Below, in pieces: positions 40,397-58,315 of a stretch of 64,000 nt of DNA. The position numbers and the translations under genes are program-made. Under the pieces are notes generated by a model. That model ran no database searches, had not been told where the DNA came from, and worked only from the letters and a program-made list of their open reading frames with translations. Source of the stretch: Vicinamibacterales bacterium (GTDB lineage: Bacteria; Acidobacteriota; Vicinamibacteria; Vicinamibacterales; UBA8438); the NCBI GenBank assembly GCA_965249175.1, contig OZ252227.1:6455474-6519473 (forward strand). The letters are read 5' to 3'. Each line of letters begins with the position of its first letter. The stretch's first letter is position 1.

Positions 40397-42782
40397 TTGA
40401 CTCCAGCGGTGTCTGTCGTCATCGCCACGTACAACAGAAGTCGGGTCCTACGGCACGCGATCCAGAGCGTGCGTGGCTCGTCGTTCACCGACTGGGAACT
40501 CATCGTCGTCGGCGACGCGTGCACCGACGATACGGCTGAGTGCGTGGCGTCCTTCGGCGATACACGAATCCGGTTTGTCAATCTGACAGGTCGCTGCGGT
40601 GATCAATCCGAGCCCAACAACCATGGCGTAGCTCTATCGGGCGGACGATATGTGGCGTTCTTGAACCATGACGATCTGTATCTGCCCGACCACCTTGGTA
40701 CGTGCGTAGCTGAAGTGGAGTCGGGCGACGCTGATTTTGTGTGGGGGGCATGCGCCATGGTTACTCCCAACGCTGAATCTGGGAGCGGAGATCGCCCATG
40801 TAAGTTTGAGTTCACCGGTGTACCACCCACCTCCGGGTATTCGCCACTGTGTTTTTCCTGCGCATCGTCTTGGGTGTGAGATATAACCAGAAGTTGTGGA
40901 TCGGCAGTCTGAAGAAGGCGGCGTATCCTTTCGCGTGAGCAACGCGAAAACTCCGGCTGGCAGGCCGGTGAAAGGAGCCGCCACCCATGCTGAAGGTACT
41001 CGACAACGATGGAGCAGACAACGAAGTTCCGCCGGAAGAGCGCGGTGCGCAGACGGTGGACGAGCTGGCCCGGGAGGGAGCCCGGCGGATGTTGATGACG
41101 GCCCTGGCGGTGGAGGTCGGGCAGTACATCGAGGCCCACGGCGAGGAGCGGGACGCGCGGGGACGCCGGCTGGTCGTTCGGAATGGTCGGGCCCAGGCGC
41201 GGAAGGTGACGTGCGGGGCAGGTACGCTCGAGGTGCATGCTCCTCGGGTGAACGACAAAAGGGTCAACGGCGCGGGCCAGCGGGAGCGGTTCACGAGTCG
41301 GATCTTGCCCCCCTACATGCGTCGCTCGCCCAAGGTGGCGGAGGTGCTGCCGATCCTCTATCTGCGCGGTCTGTCGACGGGCGATTTCCGCGAAGCGCTG
41401 CCGGTGCTATTGGGGGATGACGCGGCCGGCCTCAGCGCGACCAACATCGCGCGCCTCACGGCGGTGTGGGAAGAGGACTACCGGCGGTTCCGCCAGCGGG
41501 ACCTGGCCGATCGTGACTACGTGTACGTGTGGGTCGACGGCATCCATTTCAACATCCGGCTCGAGGACGATCGGCTCTGTACGCTGGTGATCATCGGCGT
41601 ACGGCCCGATGGGACCAAGAAGCTCGTGGCCCTGGAGGACGGCTACCGCGAGAGCACCGACAGCTGGGCGACGGTGCTGCGGGACCTCCAGCGGCGCGGC
41701 ATGCGGGCCCCGGTGGGGGCGGTCGGCGACGGCGCCCTGGGTTTCTGGGCGGCCGTGCGCGACGTGTGGCCGGACACGCGAGAGCTCCGCGACTGGTGTC
41801 ACAAGATGGGCAACGTGCTCGACAAATTGCCAAAGCGATTACAGCCGAAAGCGAAGCGCGCGCTCCGCGAGATCATGTACGCCGAGACGCGGGCACACGC
41901 CGAGGAGGCCATGGACGTCTTCATCGCCGAGTACGAGGCCAAGTACCCGAAGGCGGCGGCGTGCCTGGACGCAGACCGCGACCGCCTCCTCACGCACTTT
42001 GCCCTGCCAGCTGAGCATTGGCAGCACGTGCGCACGAGCAACGTCATCGAGTCGCCATTCGCCACGGTCCGACTCCGGCAGCGCGTGACCAAAGGCGCGG
42101 GCTCGCGCACCAAGGGCCTGTTGATGGCCTACAAGCTGCTCGAGATGGCACAGCAGCGCTGGCGTCGGCTCAATGGCGCGCATCTGCTGCCACTCGTCCG
42201 CGCCGGCGTGACGTTCATTGACGGGGTACAGCAGGAGCGAAACAACGAGGGAGATCGGAAGGTGGCCGCCTGATCACGCTGATGACCGATCCACAACATT
42301 TGACAATATCTCCTTGGGTGTTCCGGCGAAGCTTGGCGGATCGTGTCGGACCATGGCTGACAGCGGCTCGGCTTTATGTGGAGCCGTCACAGCATTGGCT
42401 GTTTGGAGCCTGGAAGTCCGGCGCAAAACTGCGGTTCGTGCCAGTCGTTAGTGTGATTCTTGTGCCGGCGGCCCGAAGGGCGGGCAGCTACGCTCGGCGT
42501 GAGAGTCCTGAGCACGAGTGGGTCGCACGATTGCTCGAGGACGACGCACGATTCCGTGAGCATGTGCTGTTGGAGGCGGCCATGAACGAAGCGCGGCAAC
42601 ACGCCAGCGACGCCTACGATCGACCCTCGCGAGCCTTGAGGCGACTGCTGCTGTGGCCCGTGTACGCACAGCTTATTGCGCTGGGTATTCATCCACGTGC
42701 TCTTACCTATGTCATATTATTCGGGTTCCGCGGCAGGGCTATCCGGCTGCACAGCAAACTCACTGGCGCGTTGAGACGATAG
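40397..42782 (+). pseudogene. GT2 glycosyltransferase split by IS256
   Basis: VSVVIATYNR, WELIVVGD.CTD, AFLNHDD; the frame continues SSW|VFRRS after the IS is removed. Confidence 0.88.
40878..42312 (+). mobile_element. IS256-family element, copy 2 (transposase 40987-42273)
   Basis: 1435 bp; 9-bp TSD cttgggtgt; protein identical to copy 1. Confidence 0.95.
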
Positions 42783-43891: not shown

Positions 43892-45485
43892 CTCGACCAG
43901 TTCGAGCACCAGCGCCCTGGTGCCTTCGGCTTCTTCCAGCCCGTAGATGTGCCCGATGCTCGGATGGAGATATTGTCAAATGTTGTGGATCGGTCATCAG
44001 CGTGATCAGGCGGCCACCTTCCGATCTCCCTCGTTGTTTCGCTCCTGCTGTACCCCGTCAATGAACGTCACGCCGGCGCGGACGAGTGGCAGCAGATGCG
44101 CGCCATTGAGCCGACGCCAGCGCTGCTGTGCCATCTCGAGCAGCTTGTAGGCCATCAACAGGCCCTTGGTGCGCGAGCCCGCGCCTTTGGTCACGCGCTG
44201 CCGGAGTCGGACCGTGGCGAATGGCGACTCGATGACGTTGCTCGTGCGCACGTGCTGCCAATGCTCAGCTGGCAGGGCAAAGTGCGTGAGGAGGCGGTCG
44301 CGGTCTGCGTCCAGGCACGCCGCCGCCTTCGGGTACTTGGCCTCGTACTCGGCGATGAAGACGTCCATGGCCTCCTCGGCGTGTGCCCGCGTCTCGGCGT
44401 ACATGATCTCGCGGAGCGCGCGCTTCGCTTTCGGCTGTAATCGCTTTGGCAATTTGTCGAGCACGTTGCCCATCTTGTGACACCAGTCGCGGAGCTCTCG
44501 CGTGTCCGGCCACACGTCGCGCACGGCCGCCCAGAAACCCAGGGCGCCGTCGCCGACCGCCCCCACCGGGGCCCGCATGCCGCGCCGCTGGAGGTCCCGC
44601 AGCACCGTCGCCCAGCTGTCGGTGCTCTCGCGGTAGCCGTCCTCCAGGGCCACGAGCTTCTTGGTCCCATCGGGCCGTACGCCGATGATCACCAGCGTAC
44701 AGAGCCGATCGTCCTCGAGCCGGATGTTGAAATGGATGCCGTCGACCCACACGTACACGTAGTCACGATCGGCCAGGTCCCGCTGGCGGAACCGCCGGTA
44801 GTCCTCTTCCCACACCGCCGTGAGGCGCGCGATGTTGGTCGCGCTGAGGCCGGCCGCGTCATCCCCCAATAGCACCGGCAGCGCTTCGCGGAAATCGCCC
44901 GTCGACAGACCGCGCAGATAGAGGATCGGCAGCACCTCCGCCACCTTGGGCGAGCGACGCATGTAGGGGGGCAAGATCCGACTCGTGAACCGCTCCCGCT
45001 GGCCCGCGCCGTTGACCCTTTTGTCGTTCACCCGAGGAGCATGCACCTCGAGCGTACCTGCCCCGCACGTCACCTTCCGCGCCTGGGCCCGACCATTCCG
45101 AACGACCAGCCGGCGTCCCCGCGCGTCCCGCTCCTCGCCGTGGGCCTCGATGTACTGCCCGACCTCCACCGCCAGGGCCGTCATCAACATCCGCCGGGCT
45201 CCCTCCCGGGCCAGCTCGTCCACCGTCTGCGCACCGCGCTCTTCCGGCGGAACTTCGTTGTCTGCTCCATCGTTGTCGAGTACCTTCAGCATGGGTGGCG
45301 GCTCCTTTCACCGGCCTGCCAGCCGGAGTTTTCGCGTTGCTCACGCGAAAGGATACGCCGCCTTCTTCAGACTGCCGATCCACAACTTCTGGCTATATCT
45401 CGTGCTCGGATGGTTCAGCGAGGCAAGCACCTTGGCTTCGCGCTCGAAGCGGGCCAGGCGATCGGGATCGGCCGTGAATGCCTCG
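43892..45485 (-). pseudogene. Internal kinase fragment interrupted by IS256 copy 3
   Basis: [49 protein letters not shown]. Confidence 0.85.
43967..45401 (-). mobile_element. IS256-family element, copy 3 (transposase 44006-45292)
   Basis: 1435 bp; flanked by (a/g)tgctcggatg duplication; one SNP near the left IR. Confidence 0.95.
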
Positions 45486-47111: not shown

Positions 47112-48126
47112 CGTGACGGGCGCGAACGGGAAGAAGCTGATCGAGTTGGACCCGCATCTGGCCGCGATCATCGTCCGCCTGTTCGAGTGGTATTCGACCG
47201 GGACGATGTCACTGAAAGATGTCGCGAGGAAGGTGCGGGCCGCAGGGCTTTCGTTCCGGAAGAGCGGGGACTCGGTTCCCCTGAGCACGGTCCACAAGAT
47301 TCTCCGCAAGCGGATATACATGGGGGATTTCGAGTGGAACGGGCGCGTCTACAAGGGAGCCCACGAGCCAATCGTCTCACGCGAACTCTGGGAACGGGTT
47401 CAAGAGGTCCTGGAAGGCCGCCATGCAAAGCGCCACCGGCGGGTCAAGCACAACGTCGCGTTCTCCGGGCTGATCAGCTGTGGACACTGCGGGTGCGCGA
47501 TCGTCGGAGAGATGAAGAAGCAGCGGTACGTCTACTACCACTGCTCCGGCTACAAGCGGAAGTGCCCCGAGCCGTACGTCCGTGAAGAGGCGCTCGAGGG
47601 GCAGTTCACCGAACTGCTGCACCGACTCACATTCGATGCGGAGGTGCTCGACTGGGTCCGGGAAGCTCTGAGCCAGAGCCACGACGACGAGCGGCAGGCT
47701 CACGACGAGGCCATCAAGCGCCTCCAGGCCGAGTCCGGCCGGCTGCAGAACCGCCTGGACGCGATGTACGTCGACAAGCTCGACGGACGCATCGATGCGG
47801 CTTCGTTCGACCGTATGGCGGCAGCTTGGCGGTCTGAACAGGCCGAATGCCTCCGGTTAATCGAACAACACCAGACGGCGAACCAGTCATACATGGCCGA
47901 GGGCATCCGGCTTCTCGAACTCGCCCGAAACGCCCGGCACCTCTTCGAGAAACAGGAAGCGCACGAGAAGCGGCGCCTGCTCGACTTCCTGGTTTCGAAC
48001 TGCTCCTGGAGGGACAACCGGCTTACGGCCGAGTTCAGGCAACCGTTTGATTTACTTGCAGATACGGCGATGGCCGCAGCTACGGCGGGAGCCGCAGACG
48101 AGTCAGATTCGGCCAAAAGTGAGATT

Positions 48127-48140
48127 TGGCTGGTAGGCAG
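48127..48140 (-). repeat. att repeat of the tRNA-Gln 3' end
   Basis: tggctggtaggcag vs tggctgggaggcag at 58242-58255 (13/14). Confidence 0.75.
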
Positions 48141-48304
48141 TCAGCCATGCATAGGGTCCGGCACGGAACGCGGTGGTGCGGGACGGTCAGCGTAAGTATC
48201 AGTACCGCATGACCTTACACGGTGCATTGTGGTTTGATACGGTCCTTGACGGTGCGCGGAAATCCGGCTACGATTCCTATACAGATTCCCGCACGATTCG
48301 TTTG

Positions 48305-48515
48305 ACACGAGCTTGCGGGCGCGGTCGGCGAGGTGCTTGTCAATGCCGGCATCGGCAAGGGTTGAAGGCTCTTGCGGTGGGACCGCGCGGGACCCACCGC
48401 TCGTGTCACCGCCACCCGTCGCCAGCCCGACGGTGTCCCTTTGTGCCCGCAACAACTCGCCCAGGCGTCGTTCCGCCCGGATGCGGATCTCGGCCGCGTC
48501 GATTTCGAGCTGGCG
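48305..48515 (-). pseudogene. Fragment of a phage DNA-binding protein (segment seen N-terminal of MT-A70/ParB-like proteins)
   Basis: EIDAAEIRIRAERRLGELL...TLADAGIDKHLADRARKL, with an internal DNA palindrome. Confidence 0.55.
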
Positions 48516-48541
48516 GTACGGTCCGACTCACGGTTGCGCCC

Positions 48542-49720
48542 ATGGCCCGACGACGCACGCATCGCCTCAGCGCCCTGTTTATCAAAACGGCCCCGCCTGG
48601 CGCCCATTGCGACGGCGACGGGCTCTATCTGCGCGTCGACCGGTCCGGCGCCCGCCGCTGGGTGCAACAACTCACCATCCGCGGGCGCCCGCGCTCGCTC
48701 GGCCTCGGCAGCGTGCGCCTCGTCTCGCTCGCCGAGGCACGCGCCGTGGCCCTGGCCAACCGGACGCTCGCCCGCGCCGGCGGCGACCCGCTGGCCGAGA
48801 AGCGCCGGGCCTCGGGGATGCCCACGGTCGAAGACGCCGCCGCGCGCGTCCTCGAACAGCGGCGCACCGGCTGGGGCGGCAAGTATGCGCGCGAGTGGGC
48901 CGCGAGACTGCGGGTGCATGCGTTCCCGCGTCTCGGCCCCCTGCCCGTCTCGGACGTGACCACCGCCGACGTGCTCGCGGTGTTGACGCCCCTCTGGTAC
49001 GACAAGCCCGAGACGGCGCGCTGCGTGCGCCAACAGCTCGGCGCCATCATGACGTGGGCGGTGGCCGTGGGACACCGCCCCGACAATCCCGTGGCGCCTG
49101 TCGGCCAGGTGCTTGGCCCGCAGCGCGATGTCGTGCGCCACCGGCCCGCGCTGCCCCATGGCGAGGTGGCTGAGGCGATCCAGCGGGTGCAGGCGTCGCA
49201 GGCGTCCACGTCCGTGAAGCTCGGGTTCGAGTTCCTGGTCGTGACGGCGGCGCGATCGGGGGAAGTGCGGCTCGCCACGTGGCACGAAGTCGATCGCGAC
49301 GCGGCGACGTGGACGGTTCCGGCGTCGCGCATGAAGGCCAAGCGGGATCACCGCGTGCCGTTGTGCGAGCGGGCGCTGGCGATCTTGCATGAGGCTCGGC
49401 AGGTGACCACTCGTGGTCACCTGATCTTCCCCAGCCAGCGGGGCAAGCCGCTCAGCGACATGACGCTCTCGAAGCTCGTCAAGGAACTGGGGATCGCCGC
49501 CGTGCCGCATGGGTTCCGCTCGTCGTTTCGGGATTGGGCCTCGGAGCGGACGAGTCACCCGCGCGAGGTGATTGAAGCGGCCCTGGCCCACACCGTGCGG
49601 AGCCAGGTGGAAGCGGCCTACGCACGCTCGGATCTGTTCGCGCGCCGCCGCCGGCTGATGGACGACTGGGCGGCCTACCTCAGTGGGCAGCGCGGCCAGG
49701 TGATCCTGTTACGACGGTAA
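48542..49720 (+). CDS. int: P4/IntA-type tyrosine integrase with an arm-binding domain
   Basis: DGDGLYLRV..SG..RW, TAARSGEV, RMK..R.HRVPL, HGFRSSFRDW, LAH, AY.RSD. Confidence 0.95.
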   Translation: MARRRTHRLSALFIKTAPPGAHCDGDGLYLRVDRSGARRWVQQLTIRGRPRSLGLGSVRLVSLAEARAVALANRTLARAGGDPLAEKRRASGMPTVEDAAARVLEQRRTGWGGKYAREWAARLRVHAFPRLGPLPVSDVTTADVLAVLTPLWYDKPETARCVRQQLGAIMTWAVAVGHRPDNPVAPVGQVLGPQRDVVRHRPALPHGEVAEAIQRVQASQASTSVKLGFEFLVVTAARSGEVRLATWHEVDRDAATWTVPASRMKAKRDHRVPLCERALAILHEARQVTTRGHLIFPSQRGKPLSDMTLSKLVKELGIAAVPHGFRSSFRDWASERTSHPREVIEAALAHTVRSQVEAAYARSDLFARRRRLMDDWAAYLSGQRGQVILLRR

Positions 49721-49774
49721 GCTCGTGGCGCAGTAGAATTGGTTTCTATTGGTTATTAGAAAGAGAGGAATTAG

Positions 49775-50170
49775 TTGAAGCCAACCATCGACGGAAATAT
49801 AGATGTCACACTGGTGGCTTATGATTGTCTAGATTCACTTGCATCCGAGCTTGGTAAGACACGGGAGGACGTGGCGAGTGTGATCCTGTACCACTACTGT
49901 TCAAGGGAAGCCTACATGGAGACGCTGGATCGAAGGGGTTTGGGCCCAACGGAACCCGTCGTAATTGCAAACGGAACGACAGATGAGAACGCCCACCAGA
50001 TCAGCATCACGTCGGCGGCTTATGAGCAGCTACGTTCACTTGCGTCCGAGCTTCCCAAGATGTCCGCGGCGAGGGCGAGCACCCAGCATGACACCATGCG
50101 AGACGTATCTAGCCAGATCCTGTGCCACTACTGTTCAAAGGAGGACTTCGAGAAGGCGCGGGGGGGTTGA
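49775..50170 (+). CDS. Hypothetical cargo protein with two tandem RHH-like repeats
   Basis: AYDCLDSLASEL...DVASVILYHYCSRE and AYEQLRSLASEL...DVSSQILCHYCSKE; lower GC than the flanks. Confidence 0.65.
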   Translation: MKPTIDGNIDVTLVAYDCLDSLASELGKTREDVASVILYHYCSREAYMETLDRRGLGPTEPVVIANGTTDENAHQISITSAAYEQLRSLASELPKMSAARASTQHDTMRDVSSQILCHYCSKEDFEKARGG

Positions 50171-50185
50171 ATCGGGAAACCGCTC

Positions 50186-51364
50186 TCAGATCGCCTTCTT
50201 AGATCCGCCACGAAGGTGATCACCTACGGGGGGAGAGGGTGAGGTGATCACCTTCGTAAAATCCTTAATATTTTCCCGAAGATGATCACTCTCGGGGTGA
50301 TCCCCTTCGGCGGGTGATCCCCTTCGCAGCGCCCACATCCATTTGGCCGGCGCGAACCCGATTTTCCTGCTCTCGACACCGGCGCGCCGCTTGGCCCGCT
50401 GGAGCGTCGGCTCCGAGATCCCGCACGCCCGGGCCGCCTTCGTCACCTCGGTATACGGCACCGGCCCATCGGCCAGCAGCTCGCGCAGAAACGTCTCTGC
50501 GTCCTCGCGCTCGGTGACGTGCTCGGGACTCGCACTCAACTCGTCGGCCGTGCGGCGATCCACCGCACCCCAGACGAGCCGGCCGGGGGCGACGATGGTG
50601 AACTGCCGGGACGGGCCCAACGTCCCGAAGTTGCTCTTCGCATGCGACACGACGCGGGCCTCGTCGCCGTCGGCTGTGGCCACGATCACGGAGCGGACGG
50701 CCGCCGAGAATTGCAGCGAGCCGGCCACTCGATGAATGGCCTTCTCTGCCCCCGCCTTGCGGTTATGCACGATGAGCAGGACGGCACGGCCGGCACACAG
50801 CGGGGTGAGCCGCTTCACGATCTCACGAATAAATTTCGACTCGTTCACGTCGCCGGGGGCCCACGCCAGGACGCTATCGAGCACCACGAGGCGCGCCCCG
50901 ATCCGATCCGCCTGGACGCGCGCCGCCTCGACAAACAGCGTGTCGAGCTCGGCCCCCGCCTCGAGCTGGTAGCAGGACAACCGATCGGGATCGCCGCCCA
51001 TCCGCATGTACCGAGGCACGACGACGGCCGGGAGATCGTCTTCGAGCCCAAGCCAGAGCGTGGCCCACGGCTCACGCGCCGTGTCACCCGGGAGCGGAGC
51101 CCCGCATGATCCCGCCGCCGCGAGCGCCAGGGCGATCAGGCTCTTGCCGACACCTGGATCGCCGGCCAGGAGCGCCGGATGGCCGAGTGGCAGGTACGGT
51201 TCCCAGAGCCACGCCACCTCCGTCGGTGTGACGGCCGACGCCTTGACGAAACACCGGCCGATCGCGTCGTCGATCTGTTCCCACTGCGCCCGAGGCGCGT
51301 CACCCGCGTCATCACCGTCGCTGAAACGGGGCGCGTGCGTGTCGGGGGTGCGGTGCCAGCTCAT
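50186..51364 (-). CDS. AAA_25/RepA-type replicative helicase
   Basis: V.WLWEPYLP.G...LAGDPGVGKS, LVVLDS, H.RK, GS..F.A..RS, KSNFG. Confidence 0.88.
   Translation of the reverse strand: MSWHRTPDTHAPRFSDGDDAGDAPRAQWEQIDDAIGRCFVKASAVTPTEVAWLWEPYLPLGHPALLAGDPGVGKSLIALALAAAGSCGAPLPGDTAREPWATLWLGLEDDLPAVVVPRYMRMGGDPDRLSCYQLEAGAELDTLFVEAARVQADRIGARLVVLDSVLAWAPGDVNESKFIREIVKRLTPLCAGRAVLLIVHNRKAGAEKAIHRVAGSLQFSAAVRSVIVATADGDEARVVSHAKSNFGTLGPSRQFTIVAPGRLVWGAVDRRTADELSASPEHVTEREDAETFLRELLADGPVPYTEVTKAARACGISEPTLQRAKRRAGVESRKIGFAPAKWMWALRRGSPAEGDHPESDHLRENIKDFTKVITSPSPPVGDHLRGGSKKAI
50212..50326. repeat. Putative origin: five TGATC-centred iterons around an AT-rich core
   Basis: aggtgatcacct, aggtgatcacct, agatgatcactc, gggtgatcccct, gggtgatcccct within the helicase 3' end. 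Confidence 0.7.
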
Positions 51365-51576
51365 GCCGCCCTCGTCGTCGTGTCGCGCTGATGGGCCCGC
51401 AACCAGCGGTTCTGCACCCGCCGAAGGCGCGCCTGCAGCCGATCCCGCTCCACCGTCAGCGCGTGCACCTGTTCGACAGCGGCATGCAGCACTTCGCGCA
51501 GCCCTGCCGCCTCACGCGCCAGGGTGTGCTCGCTGTCGGCCAGCTCCCGAATTACGAGATCGCGATCGTCGGGCAT
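51361..51576 (-). CDS. Small coiled-coil protein
   Basis: Translationally coupled to the helicase gene. Confidence 0.6.
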   Translation of the reverse strand: MPDDRDLVIRELADSEHTLAREAAGLREVLHAAVEQVHALTVERDRLQARLRRVQNRWLRAHQRDTTTRAA

Positions 51577-51582
51577 GGGCGT

Positions 51583-51786
51583 TTAGGCCGCCGGCCTGTC
51601 CGTGCCGCCGCGCGGGCGGGCGTCGAGCCACGCCACGATTTCGGATTCGTACCAGCGGACCGCGCGGCTGCCGAGCCTGATCGGCTTCGGGAATCCGTCT
51701 CGCTTGATCAGGCTGTAAATGGTCGACTTCGACGCGCCGACCAATGCCCGCACCGCGCGGCAGTCAAGCATGCGGGGCGGGGTCAT
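51583..51786 (-). CDS. alpA: AlpA-family regulator/excisionase
   Basis: V...VG.SKSTIY..I....FPKPIRLG.RAV.W.ESEI..W. Confidence 0.93.
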   Translation of the reverse strand: MTPPRMLDCRAVRALVGASKSTIYSLIKRDGFPKPIRLGSRAVRWYESEIVAWLDARPRGGTDRPAA

Positions 51787-52280
51787 GGGTCCGACCTTTC
51801 GTCGGCCGCTACCTTCGCCAGCATGCCCCGCATCATCGCCTGGAACTTCTCGGGGTCGTCGCGCTGGAGCCGGAGCAGCGTGTTGCGCTCAAATGCGCGC
51901 TGAATGGCGGGCGGCGCGTCCGCCGTCAGGCGCTCATTGTGGGTGCGCGTCCATGCGCCGGCCTCCCTGAGGTCGGCTTCTGTCGTCCCCGCAATGGCTA
52001 CTTCGATGTTGAAGCGCGTGGGATGGCGCGCCTCGAAGCTCAGACGCTGTTCGATGAGCGCCCCGAGGAATCGCCGCCGCTCGTTCGCAATGCGATGCGG
52101 GGTCAGCGGTTCGAGCTGGCGGCCTTCCTGAATCAGCGCCGGGAGCGTCAGCATGTCCCGCTGCTTGAGGTCATCGACAATCGCCGCATCCAGCATCTCC
52201 ACATGCCGTTTTTCCAGCCGAACCACCACCGCCTGTTCGTCATCTGGTTTCGGGGGACGCCCGATCTTCGCTGCAGCCAT
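51783..52280 (-). CDS. Hypothetical DNA-binding protein
   Basis: KIGRPPK...VVVRL N-terminus (RHH-like); coupled to alpA. Confidence 0.6.
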   Translation of the reverse strand: MAAAKIGRPPKPDDEQAVVVRLEKRHVEMLDAAIVDDLKQRDMLTLPALIQEGRQLEPLTPHRIANERRRFLGALIEQRLSFEARHPTRFNIEVAIAGTTEADLREAGAWTRTHNERLTADAPPAIQRAFERNTLLRLQRDDPEKFQAMMRGMLAKVAADERSDP

Positions 52281-52374
52281 TTTTCAAGCCTACAAAGCCT
52301 TTAAGAATCGTATATTACTTTGGAGTCGGAATACAAGCGCTGGCCAGTCGGCCGAACGGTGAACGCCCGCCGCC

Positions 52375-52614
52375 CTACTCGTCGCCGCCGTATTTGTCGG
52401 GCAACGTCACGCCCTTCAACTTGGCGATTTCGAGGCAGAGACAGCTGACGGCCACGGCCAGCGTGCTGCTGATGGCCGGCTCATCAGCGACGAGCCGCCA
52501 GGCGACGCGCAGGGGGTTGTCGTGCGCCGTCGGCGAGACAGTGAGGGCCTCGCGAATCGTGGGCGGTGTGAGTGTGGGAGACGAAACAGGCGGGATAGAA
52601 TGAGACTCAGCCAT
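52375..52614 (-). CDS. Small hypothetical protein
   Basis: AGGAG RBS, MAESHSIP... Confidence 0.55.
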   Translation of the reverse strand: MAESHSIPPVSSPTLTPPTIREALTVSPTAHDNPLRVAWRLVADEPAISSTLAVAVSCLCLEIAKLKGVTLPDKYGGDE

Positions 52615-52696
52615 GGCACGCTCCTGGTTAGCGGGTTGTGGTGAGGCTCTCGGGGGTGCTTTGTACACCCTCGGGGGCCGCTTCAAACTGCCCGCA

Positions 52697-52726
52697 AGCC
52701 TAGACGGGTGGGGGGCGACGTGTCAA
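52697..52726 (-). promoter_or_regulatory. Sigma70-like leftward promoter
   Basis: TTGACA-18 bp-TAGGCT on the minus strand. Confidence 0.55.
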
Positions 52727-52742
52727 GCGTGAGACGTGCCAA

Positions 52743-53173
52743 TTTTCGCGCCGGCGCGAAAAATTCCGATGGGCCGAGACGTTCCAATTGTGTCGGCGCC
52801 GACACCGACGCCACCCGAAGGGCGGTATCTTTCTGACGCTTCGACATCCCTGCGTCGCGAGCCGCTTGGGAGCGTGAAGAACTTGTATCGGCGCCGATAC
52901 AAGTTCGTGAGCCGGCTAACTAATTCGTTAGGCGCCGACCGATTTTGGGAAATACGGCAGGTCTGCCGCATTTTTCTGACGGGCCCGCCCGTTCCAGTGC
53001 CTGCCCGCCGGCCATCGGTGCCAACCAAAACATTAGGGACGGGGCCGACCCTAATGTTCTTACTCGTCAGCCAGCAGCCCGGCCAGCTCCGCCGCCCGGT
53101 TCATGTCCAATTTTCTCGGCGCCGAGAAACAGGGGAGGCGCCTCCCCCTAATTCGTGCGCCGGCGCACGAATT
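52743..53173. repeat. Array of loop-less palindromes centred on GGCGCC/GCCGGC
   Basis: Perfect palindromes at 52743-52762, 52790-52805, 52879-52906, 53112-53129, 53132-53147 and 53150-53173; degenerate ones near 52922, 52950 and 53029. Confidence 0.9.
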
Positions 53174-53175
53174 GC

Positions 53176-54222
53176 TTAGGACGCGTCCAGCAGCCCGGCC
53201 AGGCCCGCCGCCTGATCCACCGACATCCCGCCGCCCACGAGGCTTTGGAAGGCGCGAGCGCGGCCAGATAGATCCGACGCGAACAGCTTGTCGAACCCGA
53301 GCGTGAGCGTCGGTGTATCGAGCTTCGCGGCCAGTTCGGTGGCCACGCACGCCGCGAGCGGTTGGACGCAGCCGTGCAAGAACCGCCGCCACGCTTCACG
53401 TTGCCCCGTGCCGTCGCCGGGGGTGACGAGTTCCACCGGCACGCCACACGCACTCAACACGGCGCGCGCGGCATCTGTGCGCAACGTCGCCAAACTCGCC
53501 GGCGGATTCGCGCCTAACCGCTGCGGCTGGTAATCACCTCGCGGGGCGGCCATCCGCCCGTCGCCCCAGCCGGCCGCCAACGTTTCGACGAGCGCCGTCT
53601 TGCCGCCGAGCGATCCAATATCCCGACGCAGATCCGACACGCTGTCATCCTGGCCGTCGCTCGGAATGGGCAGCACGAACCCTCTCGTGCCGGCTGCCTC
53701 GTCGCCGAGCGCCGCTTCGAGTTCCGCACTGAGCCGGCCCGACAACCGGGCACGTGCGAGCGGCCCGACGCCCACCCACGGCCGCGCCGGATCGATTGAG
53801 TAGCGGCAGTGAATCACGCCCTCGGCCGGACGCACGATCGTCGTCGTGCCGGACGGGCCAGCGAGATCGCAGCGGTAGCGCCAGGTGGTGGAATCGGCCG
53901 CGCCCGTCACGTCCCACGCGGCAACGGGTAGGAGACGTACCCGGCCCTCGGCGACAGCGAGAATCAGGACGATCTCGCCGTGGACGATCAGGGCACGGCC
54001 GATGTCGGCCAGCACGTCAGGGGTGAGCCCCCGCGTCGCTGGCGTGTTCGGTGTGATCTCAGCGCTGGCGAACGCGCGACTGAGCGCCCCCGCCGCCGCT
54101 TCCACAGCCGCCGTGGCCGCCACGTCCGCGTGCGTGCCCGCAGCCCGCGCGAGGATCGCCTGGACGACGCCATCCGTATAGGACGCCTGCCGGTGTTCGG
54201 TGCGTCGCGTGAAGGGCCACAT
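53176..54222 (-). CDS. Phage portal protein
   Basis: Position in the head module; MWPF..., AV.AA...LS..FAS, LIVHGE, A.GVP..L, VQPL....ELA.KL. Confidence 0.8.
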   Translation of the reverse strand: MWPFTRRTEHRQASYTDGVVQAILARAAGTHADVAATAAVEAAAGALSRAFASAEITPNTPATRGLTPDVLADIGRALIVHGEIVLILAVAEGRVRLLPVAAWDVTGAADSTTWRYRCDLAGPSGTTTIVRPAEGVIHCRYSIDPARPWVGVGPLARARLSGRLSAELEAALGDEAAGTRGFVLPIPSDGQDDSVSDLRRDIGSLGGKTALVETLAAGWGDGRMAAPRGDYQPQRLGANPPASLATLRTDAARAVLSACGVPVELVTPGDGTGQREAWRRFLHGCVQPLAACVATELAAKLDTPTLTLGFDKLFASDLSGRARAFQSLVGGGMSVDQAAGLAGLLDAS

Positions 54223-54224
54223 GG

Positions 54225-54539
54225 CTAACAGGCTCCCGCGCGGTGCACGCGCCATGGCTTGAGCAGACTGGCCGCCCCGCTCTTGATGAACCCGCCCGCC
54301 GAACTGACGGCCGGCCGTTCGTCGCTGCCGAACGAGGCGCTATCGAACAACCAGCCGAACAACCGGAGCGTCGCTTCGTCCTTCACGGCGTCGGGTGCGT
54401 CGGGCGCGTGCTGCGTCACCAAGGCGACAGCCGCCGCGAGCGGGCGAGGCACCAGCCCTTCGTACTCCGAGCCGGCGTAGGCCTCTTCGTCCGCCACGAG
54501 GCGCAGATGCAGCGCCGCCTGCGCCTCTGTCACAGCCAT
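54225..54539 (-). CDS. Head-tail connector (gp6-like)
   Basis: HLRL, P.AVK.A.L.L.GWLF, AASLLKPWRV. Confidence 0.78.
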   Translation of the reverse strand: MAVTEAQAALHLRLVADEEAYAGSEYEGLVPRPLAAAVALVTQHAPDAPDAVKDEATLRLFGWLFDSASFGSDERPAVSSAGGFIKSGAASLLKPWRVHRAGAC

Positions 54540-55069
54540 ACGCGCCGCTGTCGTGGCCACACCTCGGGAGGGTGGCCACCCGAGGTGTGTCTTGCCGCTG
54601 CCGCGCGTTCGGCAATCGCCGCCAGACTCTCGCCGTACGCGGGCCGATCCACCAGCGCCAGGCCCCGCAACGCGGCCCGCTCGACGATCCGCACGCCGCC
54701 CTCGAAGCGTTCCCCCTCGACGCGAAATTCGAGCGAGAATCCCCGCAACACCCCACGACGCAGCAAGGCGGCCGTGTCGTGTCCGTCGCGGGTGTCCGGC
54801 AAGTCGAGCGTGGCCCGCAAGGCGTCCGGCCCGTCCGTGAACGTCAACCCGCCGCCGCCGGTACGGGCCAACGGCCGGCCGCGATCGTGGTGCACGTTCG
54901 CCAACACGTCGAGCGCCGCCACGTCGCCGAAGGCCCCAGACTGGAACCGCTCACGAAACCCCGGCAACTGCGCTTCGTCGTGGTAGCTGAGCGCGACGCC
55001 CTCGACACGGCCGGGGCCGCTGGCACTCTCGCGCCACTCGACAGGGGCGAAGCGATACTCGTCGATCAT
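54530..55069 (-). CDS. HK97-family prohead protease
   Basis: F.ERF..GAF, NVHHD...LART, G.L.GFS.EF, LALVDRPAY. Confidence 0.9.
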   Translation of the reverse strand: MIDEYRFAPVEWRESASGPGRVEGVALSYHDEAQLPGFRERFQSGAFGDVAALDVLANVHHDRGRPLARTGGGGLTFTDGPDALRATLDLPDTRDGHDTAALLRRGVLRGFSLEFRVEGERFEGGVRIVERAALRGLALVDRPAYGESLAAIAERAAAARHTSGGHPPEVWPRQRRVWL

Positions 55070-56307
55070 TACGCCACCTTGAACGCGGCCCGCACGTAGG
55101 CATCCGTTCGGATGATGCTGAACGCCCAGAGCGCGACGGCCGTGATCGCTATTTGGCCCTTCGCCGCGTGCGTATACGGATCGCGGATGAGTTCGAGGCC
55201 TTGCCACACCGGCGCAACAGCCGAGCCCGCGCCCCGGGCCGCCCGGTAGACGATCGCCGCTTGGATGTCCTGCCCCGTGCCGCTCGCTGGCGGGGCCGGA
55301 ATGAGCGCCGAGCTGACAAACCCGCCGCTGCGGGCGATCAAGTAGTCGCTCACGGCCACGTCACCACTCGTGTTCAGGAGCGTGCCGGCCAGCCCGTATG
55401 TCGCGGCCCCGACGAGCATCTTCACACCCGTGAGGTTGCGCGCGTAGCGGCCATCCACCGCCCGACTCGCCGCGCCGACGAAGTCTGAGAAGGTGGCTGT
55501 TGCTGTCGGGGCCGTCGGGGTCGCGAGCGCGCTCAGGAACCCGCTGACGTTCGGGGCCGTGCCGTTCCCATTCAGGACCTGATCGTCGATCTTTTCCCCG
55601 AGCGCCCCACTCAGATCCCGACGCAACGCCTCTTCCATGCCGCGCAGCCGCGCCGTGTCTTCGACGCCGAACAGATACCGTGCCGTCAGTCGACGTGGTT
55701 CCAAGACTGTCGTGCTGATCGTCGCCGCCTCGGCATCCTTCACCGCGCCCTTGCTCTTCATCTCCGGCGACACGCCAGCACTGAGCACCGGGTAATTGAC
55801 TTCGCCGATCCCGACCTGCGGCATGCTGACACCGAGATAGGCCGACGCGGTGTTCGCGAAGATGCGCCCCAGAATGGACGCCTGCGACTGGCCCACATTC
55901 GACGGCGCCGTCGTCGCCGTATCCGCCCGTTCCTCGTGACGGGGCAGCAACGCCTCCCACGGGATCAACCCTTCTCTCGCATGCTCCCCGAAGACGGCCG
56001 CGCGGAGTTCCTGTTCGGCCCCCGTGACGGCTCGGCCGGTGGCCGCCTCGTGCAAGTAGCTCCGCAGTTCGGCCCGCTCGACGAGGGCGCGCCGCTCGGT
56101 GTCTTCGCCGTCGTCGGCGCGCGGCTCCGGCGCGTCGGCCTCGGCGATGGTGGCCGCCCGCCAGCGCGTCTCGATGGTGGGGTATTCCGTCGCCAGCGCG
56201 GCCATCGTCGCGCGCTGTGCGTCCGTCGGGCTGTCAAGCCCAGATAGCTCATTGAGCGTCTGCCTGATCTCACTCAGTCGGAGTTGCAATCGTTGTCCAG
56301 TCGTCAT
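55069..56307 (-). CDS. HK97-fold major capsid protein
   Basis: Coiled N-terminal delta domain, D.QVLNGNG...P.G.L, RDPYT.A.KGQ. Confidence 0.88.
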   Translation of the reverse strand: MTTGQRLQLRLSEIRQTLNELSGLDSPTDAQRATMAALATEYPTIETRWRAATIAEADAPEPRADDGEDTERRALVERAELRSYLHEAATGRAVTGAEQELRAAVFGEHAREGLIPWEALLPRHEERADTATTAPSNVGQSQASILGRIFANTASAYLGVSMPQVGIGEVNYPVLSAGVSPEMKSKGAVKDAEAATISTTVLEPRRLTARYLFGVEDTARLRGMEEALRRDLSGALGEKIDDQVLNGNGTAPNVSGFLSALATPTAPTATATFSDFVGAASRAVDGRYARNLTGVKMLVGAATYGLAGTLLNTSGDVAVSDYLIARSGGFVSSALIPAPPASGTGQDIQAAIVYRAARGAGSAVAPVWQGLELIRDPYTHAAKGQIAITAVALWAFSIIRTDAYVRAAFKVA

Positions 56308-56585
56308 GTCTGTATCCCTTCTGTCAGTTCATTCACCAGTCGATCCCATGGTGTGTGTCTAAGGGGCGGATGATGCGCCCGCAGGTGACAGCGGCGACAG
56401 CGCACCTCCAGGTTGTCGATCGCAAAGGCGGGCCCGCCAGAGGCCAGTGGCTGCCGATGGTGGACTTCAAGCCGCCCCACACCGCCGCACACGCCGCAGC
56501 GCCACGCGGCCCGACTGAGCGCGGCGCGTCGGACGTGCGCCCAGCGCCGATCTCGATACACCGTCCGGCCGCGAGTGCCCGCCAT
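56304..56585 (-). CDS. HNH endonuclease (terminase-associated)
   Basis: C..CG..LEVHH..PL..GG....NL..C..CH. Confidence 0.92.
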   Translation of the reverse strand: MAGTRGRTVYRDRRWAHVRRAALSRAAWRCGVCGGVGRLEVHHRQPLASGGPAFAIDNLEVRCRRCHLRAHHPPLRHTPWDRLVNELTEGIQT

Positions 56586-58087
56586 TACGCCACCCCGAGA
56601 TAGACACGCGCCGGCCGGGGCCGCTCGTGCCGGACGCCAGCACTCACCGCCAGAATCGCCGCCGCCACCGCGTCGTCCTTCGCCCGAAACCGTCGCCCGC
56701 CTTCACTCGCCTTACTGAGTTTTTCGTTGCCGGCTGGATCGGCAATCACCGTCGCTTCGCGCATGGCGGCCCTGAGCAACAGCGACACGGCCGGACGCAC
56801 CTGACCCGTCAGACACGCCGTCCGAAACGCCCGCACATCTTCAGCCCCATCTTTGTAGCCTTGGCCCCGCAACAGGAACGCGCAGCGGGGCAGCCCCGCC
56901 GCGTCGAGCGCATCTCTCAGCTCACCTTCGCGCCACCGATCGGCGACGACGGCGGCTGGTACCCCAAAGCGATCCCGGACCACACGCACGAAGTCACTCA
57001 GCGGCACGACACGGCCCCCGAGCGTGACGAGCTCGCCTCGCCGGGCCATCTGCTGATACAGATCGGCCACGCCGTCCTTCAGCCCGCGTGCGGCCAGCGT
57101 CGGCGCACTCGGAAAGGCCGCCACGGTGTCCAGCCGGCCGCTCTCGGGCCAGAACGCACAGGCCGCCGTCATGGCCGCCGTGGTACCCGCGTCGATCCCC
57201 CAAATGCACGGGCCGTGACGGGGCGCGTCGTCGGCCTCAAGCTGTTCCCACGTGCCGGCCGCCAAGAGCGCTGCCCGTTCGGTGTCCGAGGTACCCAAGT
57301 TCAACCGCAGCGCCTGGAACGCCGGGAGCAGCGAGGCATCTGTCTTCGCGCGATCCGCCTCCACGCGAATCGCCGCCGCCAAGTCGGGCATCGTCGCGAG
57401 TGACGGGTTGGCCTTCCGCCACGTCCGTGTCACGAACGGGGGATCGTCAGACTCGGCCGCGTGACACTGGCTGTAGATGCCGGGCCCGCCGCCGAGCAAC
57501 GTCGCGAACCAGTGGCTCGTATCCGCCGGCCGCGTCCCGAACGCGATCAGCCGACTGTGCTGGATTTTCCCGAGCGCCGTCACCATCGCCGCGTGCATCC
57601 GCGCGCTCGTGCTCGGCGGCCATTGCGCCGGTTCATCCGCCAACACCAGCACCGGGGCCAAGCCATGCGCTCGACGCGGATCGCTACCAAGACAGCGCAC
57701 CCGCGCGCCCGTCGTCCGATCCTCAATGCTGGCCCGGTTCGCGCTGTCCTGGATGCGCCAGCGCGTCGGTTCGGTATCGAGCCATGGCCGCAGAAAGCTC
57801 AGCACGTGCTCGAAGATAATTCGGGCTTGCGTGAAGCTCGACGCGACACACACCACATCAGCCCTCGGCTGTGCCAACGGCCCGGCAATCGCCGCCGTCG
57901 CAATGGCCGCCGTCAGCGTCGATTTTCCGTTGCCCCGTGCCACCGACAACCCCGCACTCGACACCCCCGTCCGGAACGCGCCGCGCAGAAACCGGCGCTG
58001 CCACGGAGCCACAACGAACGGCTGCCCGGCGAGCCGCCCCTGCGTCACCGTCAACGCGCCGATCCAGTCAAGCAGTGCGTGTTGCAT
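56585..58087 (-). CDS. terL: Terminase large subunit
   Basis: PWQ, ARGNGKST Walker A, LADE Walker B, GID, KDD..A..LA. Confidence 0.92.
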   Translation of the reverse strand: MQHALLDWIGALTVTQGRLAGQPFVVAPWQRRFLRGAFRTGVSSAGLSVARGNGKSTLTAAIATAAIAGPLAQPRADVVCVASSFTQARIIFEHVLSFLRPWLDTEPTRWRIQDSANRASIEDRTTGARVRCLGSDPRRAHGLAPVLVLADEPAQWPPSTSARMHAAMVTALGKIQHSRLIAFGTRPADTSHWFATLLGGGPGIYSQCHAAESDDPPFVTRTWRKANPSLATMPDLAAAIRVEADRAKTDASLLPAFQALRLNLGTSDTERAALLAAGTWEQLEADDAPRHGPCIWGIDAGTTAAMTAACAFWPESGRLDTVAAFPSAPTLAARGLKDGVADLYQQMARRGELVTLGGRVVPLSDFVRVVRDRFGVPAAVVADRWREGELRDALDAAGLPRCAFLLRGQGYKDGAEDVRAFRTACLTGQVRPAVSLLLRAAMREATVIADPAGNEKLSKASEGGRRFRAKDDAVAAAILAVSAGVRHERPRPARVYLGVA

Positions 58088-58241
58088 CGAAGCCTTGGCT
58101 GCGGTGTCAGCGGCCCGGTGTGCGGCGTGGACAGGGGTCCCCACGGGGTGACCGGCGCACCAGAACCCTATACAAATACCTATACGCGATCCGGACGCGA
58201 TACGTCAACTACATTTAAATGATGGACTTACATGAATGAAG

Positions 58242-58315
58242 TGGCTGGGAGGCAGGGATTCGAACCCCGATTACACGGTCCAGAGCCGCGTGTCCTACCA
58301 TTGAACGACCTCCCA
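58242..58315 (-). tRNA. tRNA-Gln(CTG)
   Basis: TGGGAGG/CCTCCCA acceptor stem, CTCTGGA anticodon loop, GGTTCGAATCC, CCA end. Confidence 0.97.

Follow-up and report, generated by a model that had tools for sequence, protein, structure and literature searches.

The window analysed here, a stretch of 64,000 nucleotides from a Vicinamibacterales genome, contains a 10.1-kb satellite in which an integrase, an AlpA-type regulator, a replicase, a capsid of its own, a protease, a portal, HNH, terL and flanking att repeats were all recognized. By the core genes listed in the available text of PMC10085698, the element appears to be cf-PICI-like. No tail or lysis genes were matched among the 14 chosen ORFs of the element that were scanned, and no adaptor or terS was recognized among the satellite ORFs scanned. 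The main features are as follows.

48127..58242: cf-PICI-like satellite, 10.1 kb, with int, an AAA_25 replicase, alpA, portal, a putative connector, protease, capsid, HNH and terL
48127-48140 and 58242-58255: att cores of 14 bp, with one difference, at the 3' end of tRNA-Gln
48307..48517, minus strand: 211-bp copy of G000:C1:5116177-5116387, between attL and int and 28 bp upstream of int
48545-49720, plus strand: int, the integrase of the satellite
51583-51786, minus strand: alpA, the AlpA regulator gene of the satellite
52375..52686, minus strand: conserved hairpin leader and 78-aa ORF, both common to the sister element L036; leader alone in the sister L035
52697..52726, minus strand: putative sigma-70-type promoter of the leftward operon (TTGACA at 52726-21, spacer of 18 bp, TAGGCT at 52702-697)
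53176-54222, minus strand: portal gene of the satellite
54225-54560: putative connector ORF, 111 aa, without a family match
54558..54589: inverted repeat at the junction of protease and head-tail connector; L035 and L036 carry other palindromes there

The leftward promoter is kept in L036 and was not called by a consensus promoter scan. The hairpin leader before the 78-aa ORF is possibly a satellite immunity or attenuator RNA, and the ORF gave no usable Atlas match. At 52607-52690 (minus strand), and likewise in L035 and L036, the leader has a weak R1162-like antisense-RNA match that falls below the gathering score. In the 3' end of the replicase (50214-50253 of the window) a 12-bp palindrome occurs twice, with analogous paired inverted repeats in L035, and is a candidate origin. 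Elsewhere in the window, two identical inverted transposase genes (40987-42273 and 44006-45292) enclose a short cargo, and next to the pair is a broken serine recombinase gene extending to attL. A joint of the empty site (48126 to 58242) was found in contigs of three of the four runs, all from one sample, and may represent excision or a strain without the element.

Between the portal stop and the leftward promoter lies an array of palindromes, here numbered u1 to u9.

52743..52762: u1, perfect palindrome of 20 bp centred on CGCCGGCG, which is the published LmbU site; translates as F-S-R-R-R-E in the LmbU-like register
52790..52805: u2, perfect palindrome of 16 bp with a CGGCGCCG centre; LmbU-type (weaker) or DinD-type
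52879..52906: u3, perfect palindrome of 28 bp; LmbU- or DinD-type
52922..52945: u4, decayed palindrome with a GGCGCC centre
52950..52973: u5, near-perfect palindrome, also called terminator-like
53029..53058: u6, near-perfect palindrome of 30 bp, with in-frame G-A-N-Q codons just before it, which we take to be a motif of phage ParB-like genes
53060..53110, minus strand: relic portal 3' end of 51 bp, of a different sister portal allele, dividing the array into two post-portal cassettes
53112..53129: u7, perfect palindrome of 18 bp, LmbU-type; reads F-S-R-R-R-E-T
53132..53147: u8, perfect palindrome of 16 bp, terminator-like on the minus strand
53150..53173: u9, perfect palindrome of 24 bp centred on CGCCGGCG, immediately after the portal stop; weak likeness to in-gene sites of the DUF1016_N type

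A sequence-only reading of this DNA had described six perfect loop-less palindromes of 16-28 bp and about three decayed ones. All of them were confirmed in place, the imperfect ones at approximately 52922-45, 52950-73 and 53029-58, and they are far above chance: among 3000 dinucleotide shuffles of 52736-53180, 2954 contained no palindrome of at least 16 bp, 45 contained one and a single shuffle contained two. Across the 6.64-Mb genome there are 457 perfect palindromes of at least 16 bp, and no 500-bp stretch other than the array contains more than four, the next-densest clusters being (CG)n-type low-complexity runs. Two details of that reading had to be amended. The flank that it gave as C(C/T)AATT before several units is better written AATT-N4-CG(G/C)CG(C/G)CG; and it had missed the portal relic inside the interval. 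The array ends 17 bp upstream of the conserved TTGACA box, and u1 is centred some 62 bp from the predicted start, on its upstream side.

Several classes of repeat and artefact were rejected. A REP/BIME host repeat is ruled out because the 16-bp core of each of the six perfect units is present in a single copy in the genome. The units are not CRISPR repeats, as had already been argued: the centre-to-centre spacings are uneven (45, 95, 41, 28, 82, 77, 19 and 22), all units differ, and Rfam gave no CRISPR match. Restriction-site decoys were discarded as well, since the host genome shows no avoidance of GGCGCC or GCCGGC (observed/expected 1.02 and 1.00, respectively). The array is spanned without difference by short-read contigs in four of four runs; assembly error is excluded for this one sample, which, being possibly the source sample, gives no independent occurrence.

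The closest relatives of the satellite are in genomes labelled Vicinamibacterales, and in these relatives the portal is followed by alpA directly or by a cargo gene. Among 94 distinct post-portal segments of relatives, a palindrome of at least 16 bp is absent in 91 and single in three, and the array is present in none; array DNA beyond the leader and the portal relic was not found in 300 genomes of the order. The comparison with relatives that the sequence-only reading had proposed thus reveals a gain in this element, and, because the post-portal slots of the relatives are without it, the array is regarded as cargo. The relic at 53060-53110 matches the portal end of L035 in 44 of 51 bases and the portal end of the element itself in 34 of 51. 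Two post-portal cassettes from different sisters were evidently joined here, that is, the array grew by accretion through recombination.

Such sites are not confined to the post-portal slot: they were also seen at the protease end, upstream of int and beside att. L036 has a single palindrome at the protease end, and L035 has one between 24-bp direct repeats. Low-depth sister contigs of the same sample, seen as short pieces, carry single palindromes behind the portal stop or at the protease end; one sister contig joins u2 to the protease end, and one has an imperfect palindrome at the place of u1 near the promoter. Single sites were sought in 50 of the 79 genome loci that carry satellites: six genomes matched, and only the site of L036 is a perfect palindrome.

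Counterparts of several units were found inside phage genes for LmbU-like proteins. According to the available text of PMC6510168, LmbU binds CGCCGGCG, the centre of u1 and u9, and in that of PMC10763038 the extended LmbU site is TCGCCGGCGA. Of the LmbU-like genes compared (29 loci, 26 distinct genes), 17 contain a perfect arm of at least 8 bp centred 7 bases into the S-R-R-R codons, where synonymous recoding gives an expectation of 0.1; two of the genes were found through the palindrome, so that 15 of 24 unselected genes carry it. The two centres of the array (GGCGCC or GCCGGC) occur in 10 of the 26. With these centres a palindrome always reads R-R-R; scoring was therefore confined to the arms, by a profile built from 16 genes, with the two palindrome-found genes left out, and compared with 4408 host sites of the same central octamers. 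The scores of u7 (22.8), u1 (20.0) and u3 (9.1) are above those of all 4408 host octamer sites, and the three units also outrank all 30 host palindromes with these centres; u2 scored 4.4, with three of the 4408 host sites higher. Composition-keeping permutations of the arms gave p = 0.002 for u7, 0.006 for u1, 0.011 for u2 and 0.054 for u3. Units u4, u8 and u9 fail the profile (u8 scored -25, and the permutation p of u4 is 0.34). By arms alone, u1, u7 and u2 match LmbU-like in-gene sites, and u3 probably fits them. In 20 bp, u1 has two differences from the in-gene site of one LmbU-like gene (L354), and u3 has two differences both from that of another (L319/L364) and, as read by eye, from that of a DinD-like gene (L320).

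A degenerate scan of viral contigs for u3 yielded eight matches, four of them perfect palindromes (1 in 16 expected each). Three of the perfect u3-type matches fall in the reading frame of a gene, which is LmbU-like in two cases and of the DinD/Bro-N antirepressor type in the third, and one u3-type viral palindrome is identical over 22 bp to the protease-end palindrome of L036. The sibling scan for the GCCGGC centre gave one perfect palindrome in eight matches. The two-site pattern was found in 123 stretches of viral contigs (80 with flanks), none of them an array, and AATT-flanked TCGGCGCCGA palindromes numbered zero in the viral contigs. For none of the array units did we find an exact donor, and five of the nine are without a donor family (u4, u5, u6 and u8) or only weakly assigned (u9). 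We could not find LmbU-, DinD- or DUF1016-like genes in this genome, an LmbU-like match in the INPHARED phage set, or LmbU-, DinD-, DUF1016- or MT-A70-N-like fragments in 101 other satellite loci (tblastn). An LmbU-like gene in the genome of L036 is without the palindrome. In only two of ten virus records does a near-copy of the in-gene site recur at another position, and one of the 24 flanks listed has such a copy. The palindrome is kept in one of five actinomycete plasmid LmbU genes and in none of six mapped distant homologs, and the codons of lmbU itself are not palindromic at the site, by the published primers. Since cellular LmbU genes, lmbU included, are mostly non-palindromic, site and gene can part. 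One phage-like contig (L392:586-766) has five different LmbU-type palindromes with a 27-bp period, between 23-bp direct repeats at a gene start; this run is also an open short frame.

DinD- and DUF1016-like genes are probably also sources of array units. The DUF1016_N genes have in-gene palindromes at a place similar to that in the LmbU-like genes, and u9 agrees in 20 of 24 bases with DUF1016_N-type sites in L393, L372 and L433, a weak match because the best host site agrees in 19 of 24. In the DinD family, only one sampled gene besides L320 has a clear in-gene near-palindrome. In the DUF1016_N (YhcG-like) genes L507-L526, odd-centred in-gene palindromes, sometimes several in tandem, lie just before an L-S-W motif. 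Similar palindromes occur as intergenic repeats in the apparently cellular contigs L371, L372 and L433. A two-site scan of metagenomes found at least 118 stretches, most of them unrelated repeats; the palindromes of the seven flagged stretches include the groups L392, L372/L393 and L371/L433. A conserved palindrome of 22-26 bp with a TCGGCCGGCCGA core is situated just upstream of the second parA-parB pair of the host (G000:C1:2629373), and one with the same core is at the matching place in four related genomes (L331-L333 and L335); it is a candidate non-canonical parS or operator.

Two longer pieces were captured from methyltransferase genes. The sequence-only reading had suggested searching the MT-A70-like genes of phages for such palindromes, and in the co-resident prophage this was borne out by an exact copy: the 211-bp piece upstream of int is 100% identical to the N-terminal part of the prophage MT-A70 gene that bears the palindrome, including the in-gene inverted repeats. 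It is the only piece common to the satellite and about 40 kb of the prophage, and its left junction is covered by short-read contigs. Beside the prophage MT-A70 gene (G000:C1:5116053) is a Dam-like gene (G000:C1:5115211) with its own palindrome behind a G-G-R-P motif; in another genome, L035 contains a frameshifted 172-bp piece (78%) of a Dam-like gene with the same palindrome variant, and a third prophage has a different palindrome at this position of its Dam-like gene. A Dam-like query matched only L035 across the satellite loci. The in-gene palindromes of MT-A70-N genes are ruled out as a source of the array units, as they have 1-3-base loops and other centres. The co-resident prophage contains, inside its tail region (G000:C1:5142581-5151153), a second cf-PICI-like element with a portal 80% identical; its cargo looks like a methyltransferase-nuclease pair.

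The LmbU-like proteins, which are the likely readers of such sites, appear to have a ParB-type fold. For the modelled domain (pLDDT 86), the 16 best Foldseek rows all name ParB, Spo0J or Noc (probability 0.95-1.0, with E-values of 0.09 or worse), and the Pfam HTH_ParB match has an E-value of 0.005. Against the LmbU family NCBIfam NF038070 the likely readers gave E-values of 1e-32 and 1e-29, below the curated cut-off. None of 67 LmbU-like homologs of 115-368 aa lists the ParB_N CTPase domain (PF02195), and a methyltransferase domain is listed in 24 of the 67. No parB-like gene was found among the satellite ORFs scanned, and all units differ from each other. The idea of parS-like loading, which had been offered earlier, is therefore not supported, there being neither a CTPase domain listed in these homologs, nor a cognate gene among the ORFs scanned, nor repeated identical sites. 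The other part of the same idea, a panel of sites of different specificities with counterparts inside phage genes for DNA-binding proteins, an MT-A70 gene among them, is upheld by the arm matches and the 211-bp copy.

Comparison of the sequences shows that several units and the 211-bp piece come from phages, that the array grew by accretion and that the position of such sites varies. As for function, there is nearly an even chance that the array is a panel of docking sites for ParB-type readers of helper phages, so that the DNA of the satellite would be treated like that of the helper itself. A phage protein would bind the palindrome in its own gene, and the copies in the satellite would bind the same protein wherever they lie. 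The docked readers, often methyltransferase fusions, would then methylate or spare satellite DNA like helper DNA, and this licensing would extend across several helpers. Licensing is the most likely benefit because many of the readers are fused to DNA methyltransferases and because both long captures come from methyltransferase genes. More tentatively, and more doubtfully, the case may be general: phages would mark self DNA with short palindromes in their ParB-type reader genes, often methyltransferase-fused, and capsid-forming satellites would gather these from many phages into a DNA passport. With it a satellite would recruit foreign readers in cis, by which its own DNA is modified or spared, and would keep a non-coding, evolving record of past helpers.

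The same evidence of origin, namely the arm matches of the units and the MT-A70 and Dam-like captures, also fits a panel of decoys, in which the excised satellite at high copy would titrate helper regulators off the helper operators and so interfere with the helper. The empty att site was seen, a cf-PICI cut helper yield more than 100-fold in the available text of bioRxiv 10.1101/2025.02.11.637232, and, in that of PMC8585504, suppression of BstA in trans by aba DNA requires a high copy number. However, each specificity is present once, with no tandem copies, and the single sites of the sisters would make a weak sponge; because of these single copies a strong sponge is disfavoured, and we consider decoys unlikely.

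It is rather improbable that the palindromes are neutral or selfish, that is, recombination-prone hairpins copied to gene junctions with short duplications, with symmetry maintained by template switching and with no benefit to the satellite. The duplications of 23-24 bp that flank the insertions in L035 and L392, the relic portal end, the decayed units and the frameshifted fragment are what such a process might leave, and intergenic repeats of the same kind are present in other contigs. However, the units differ and trace to different phage gene families, six are still perfect, and, with about 40 kb to draw from, two captures made independently both took a site-bearing segment, each from a different methyltransferase gene.

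Ranked next, and also improbable, is a sensor in which helper proteins on the array would activate or derepress the leftward promoter and induce alpA and replication, with one unit per helper type. The close approach of the array and u1 to the promoter, the imperfect palindrome at the same place in one sister contig and the 211-bp copy just upstream of int agree with this, and LmbU is an activator in the available text of PMC6510168. However, L036 keeps the promoter without any upstream palindrome, and most units are 100-470 bp from the promoter. The sensing role at the alpA promoter put forward in the sequence-only reading is further weakened by the sites found at the protease end, upstream of int and beside att: the sites do not keep to one position, and a pure promoter sensor is therefore disfavoured. 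A structured RNA, a terminator cluster or a small protein is very improbable: read-through from the portal would give a multi-hairpin RNA, the minus-strand transcript is more stably folded than shuffled sequences (z -2.58) and u5 and u8 are terminator-like, but the folding follows from the palindromes themselves, a hairpin needs no perfect centre and Rfam had no match in the array; and the 147-codon frame at 52736-53179 that spans the array is open, but it is without a Pfam or PHROG match and the R-R-R readings of the units are in three different frames.

The proposed docking panel resembles several known systems in part. The LmbU-operator system of Streptomyces lincolnensis involves the same protein family as the likely readers and the same central octamer as u1 and u9, but LmbU, as described in the available text of PMC6510168 and PMC10763038, is a cellular activator of an antibiotic cluster, whereas here the sites are on a satellite that encodes no reader, have 16-28 bp with variable arms, and match in-gene sites of the phage homologs. 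The aba element of BstA is, in the available text of PMC8585504, likewise a short DNA element: it belongs with the gene for an HTH protein of a phage, confers 'self' status on whichever replicon carries it and is cognate-specific in principle, as is proposed for the satellite sites. It differs in having 63 bp with terminal direct repeats and a KilA-N-like protein, and that text has no mention of a palindrome and no description of a satellite naturally collecting several foreign elements. ParB-parS, and BisD-bisS of ICEclc in the available text of PMC12409273, share palindromic sites of 16-24 bp, sites that may lie inside genes and, as it appears, a reader of ParB-type fold. In contrast to these, no CTPase domain is listed for the sampled readers of satellite sites, and one element carries many different sites with no cognate protein. 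KorB and Noc are further orphan ParB-type regulators, and Roi of phage HK022, of a protein family different from the readers here, is reported to bind within roi, the gene that encodes it. The cf-PICIs, in the available text of PMC10085698 and bioRxiv 10.1101/2025.02.11.637232, have the same set of int, alpA, replicase, capsid, protease, portal, HNH and terL, no tail genes, and variable cargo beside the packaging module. Here, however, the cargo consists of non-coding phage-derived sites and not immune genes, the packaging operon points towards alpA, terS and adaptor were not identified, and the hosts of the relatives are Vicinamibacterales. We found no description of satellites collecting such sites in the full-text literature, a set outside of which are most subscription journals and the bioRxiv supplements.

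The locus adds an exact satellite-prophage pair in one genome, and the idea is thus directly testable with named pairs of protein and site: the prophage MT-A70 gene with the satellite copy, and the LmbU-like genes with the matching array units. It bears on two questions, namely how cf-PICIs cope with many unrelated helpers and what role is played by the widespread HTH-methyltransferase fusions of phages. If the binding is true, the in-gene palindromes would be a natural protein-DNA code set for ParB-type domains, and the arrays of satellites would be a readable record of helper history.
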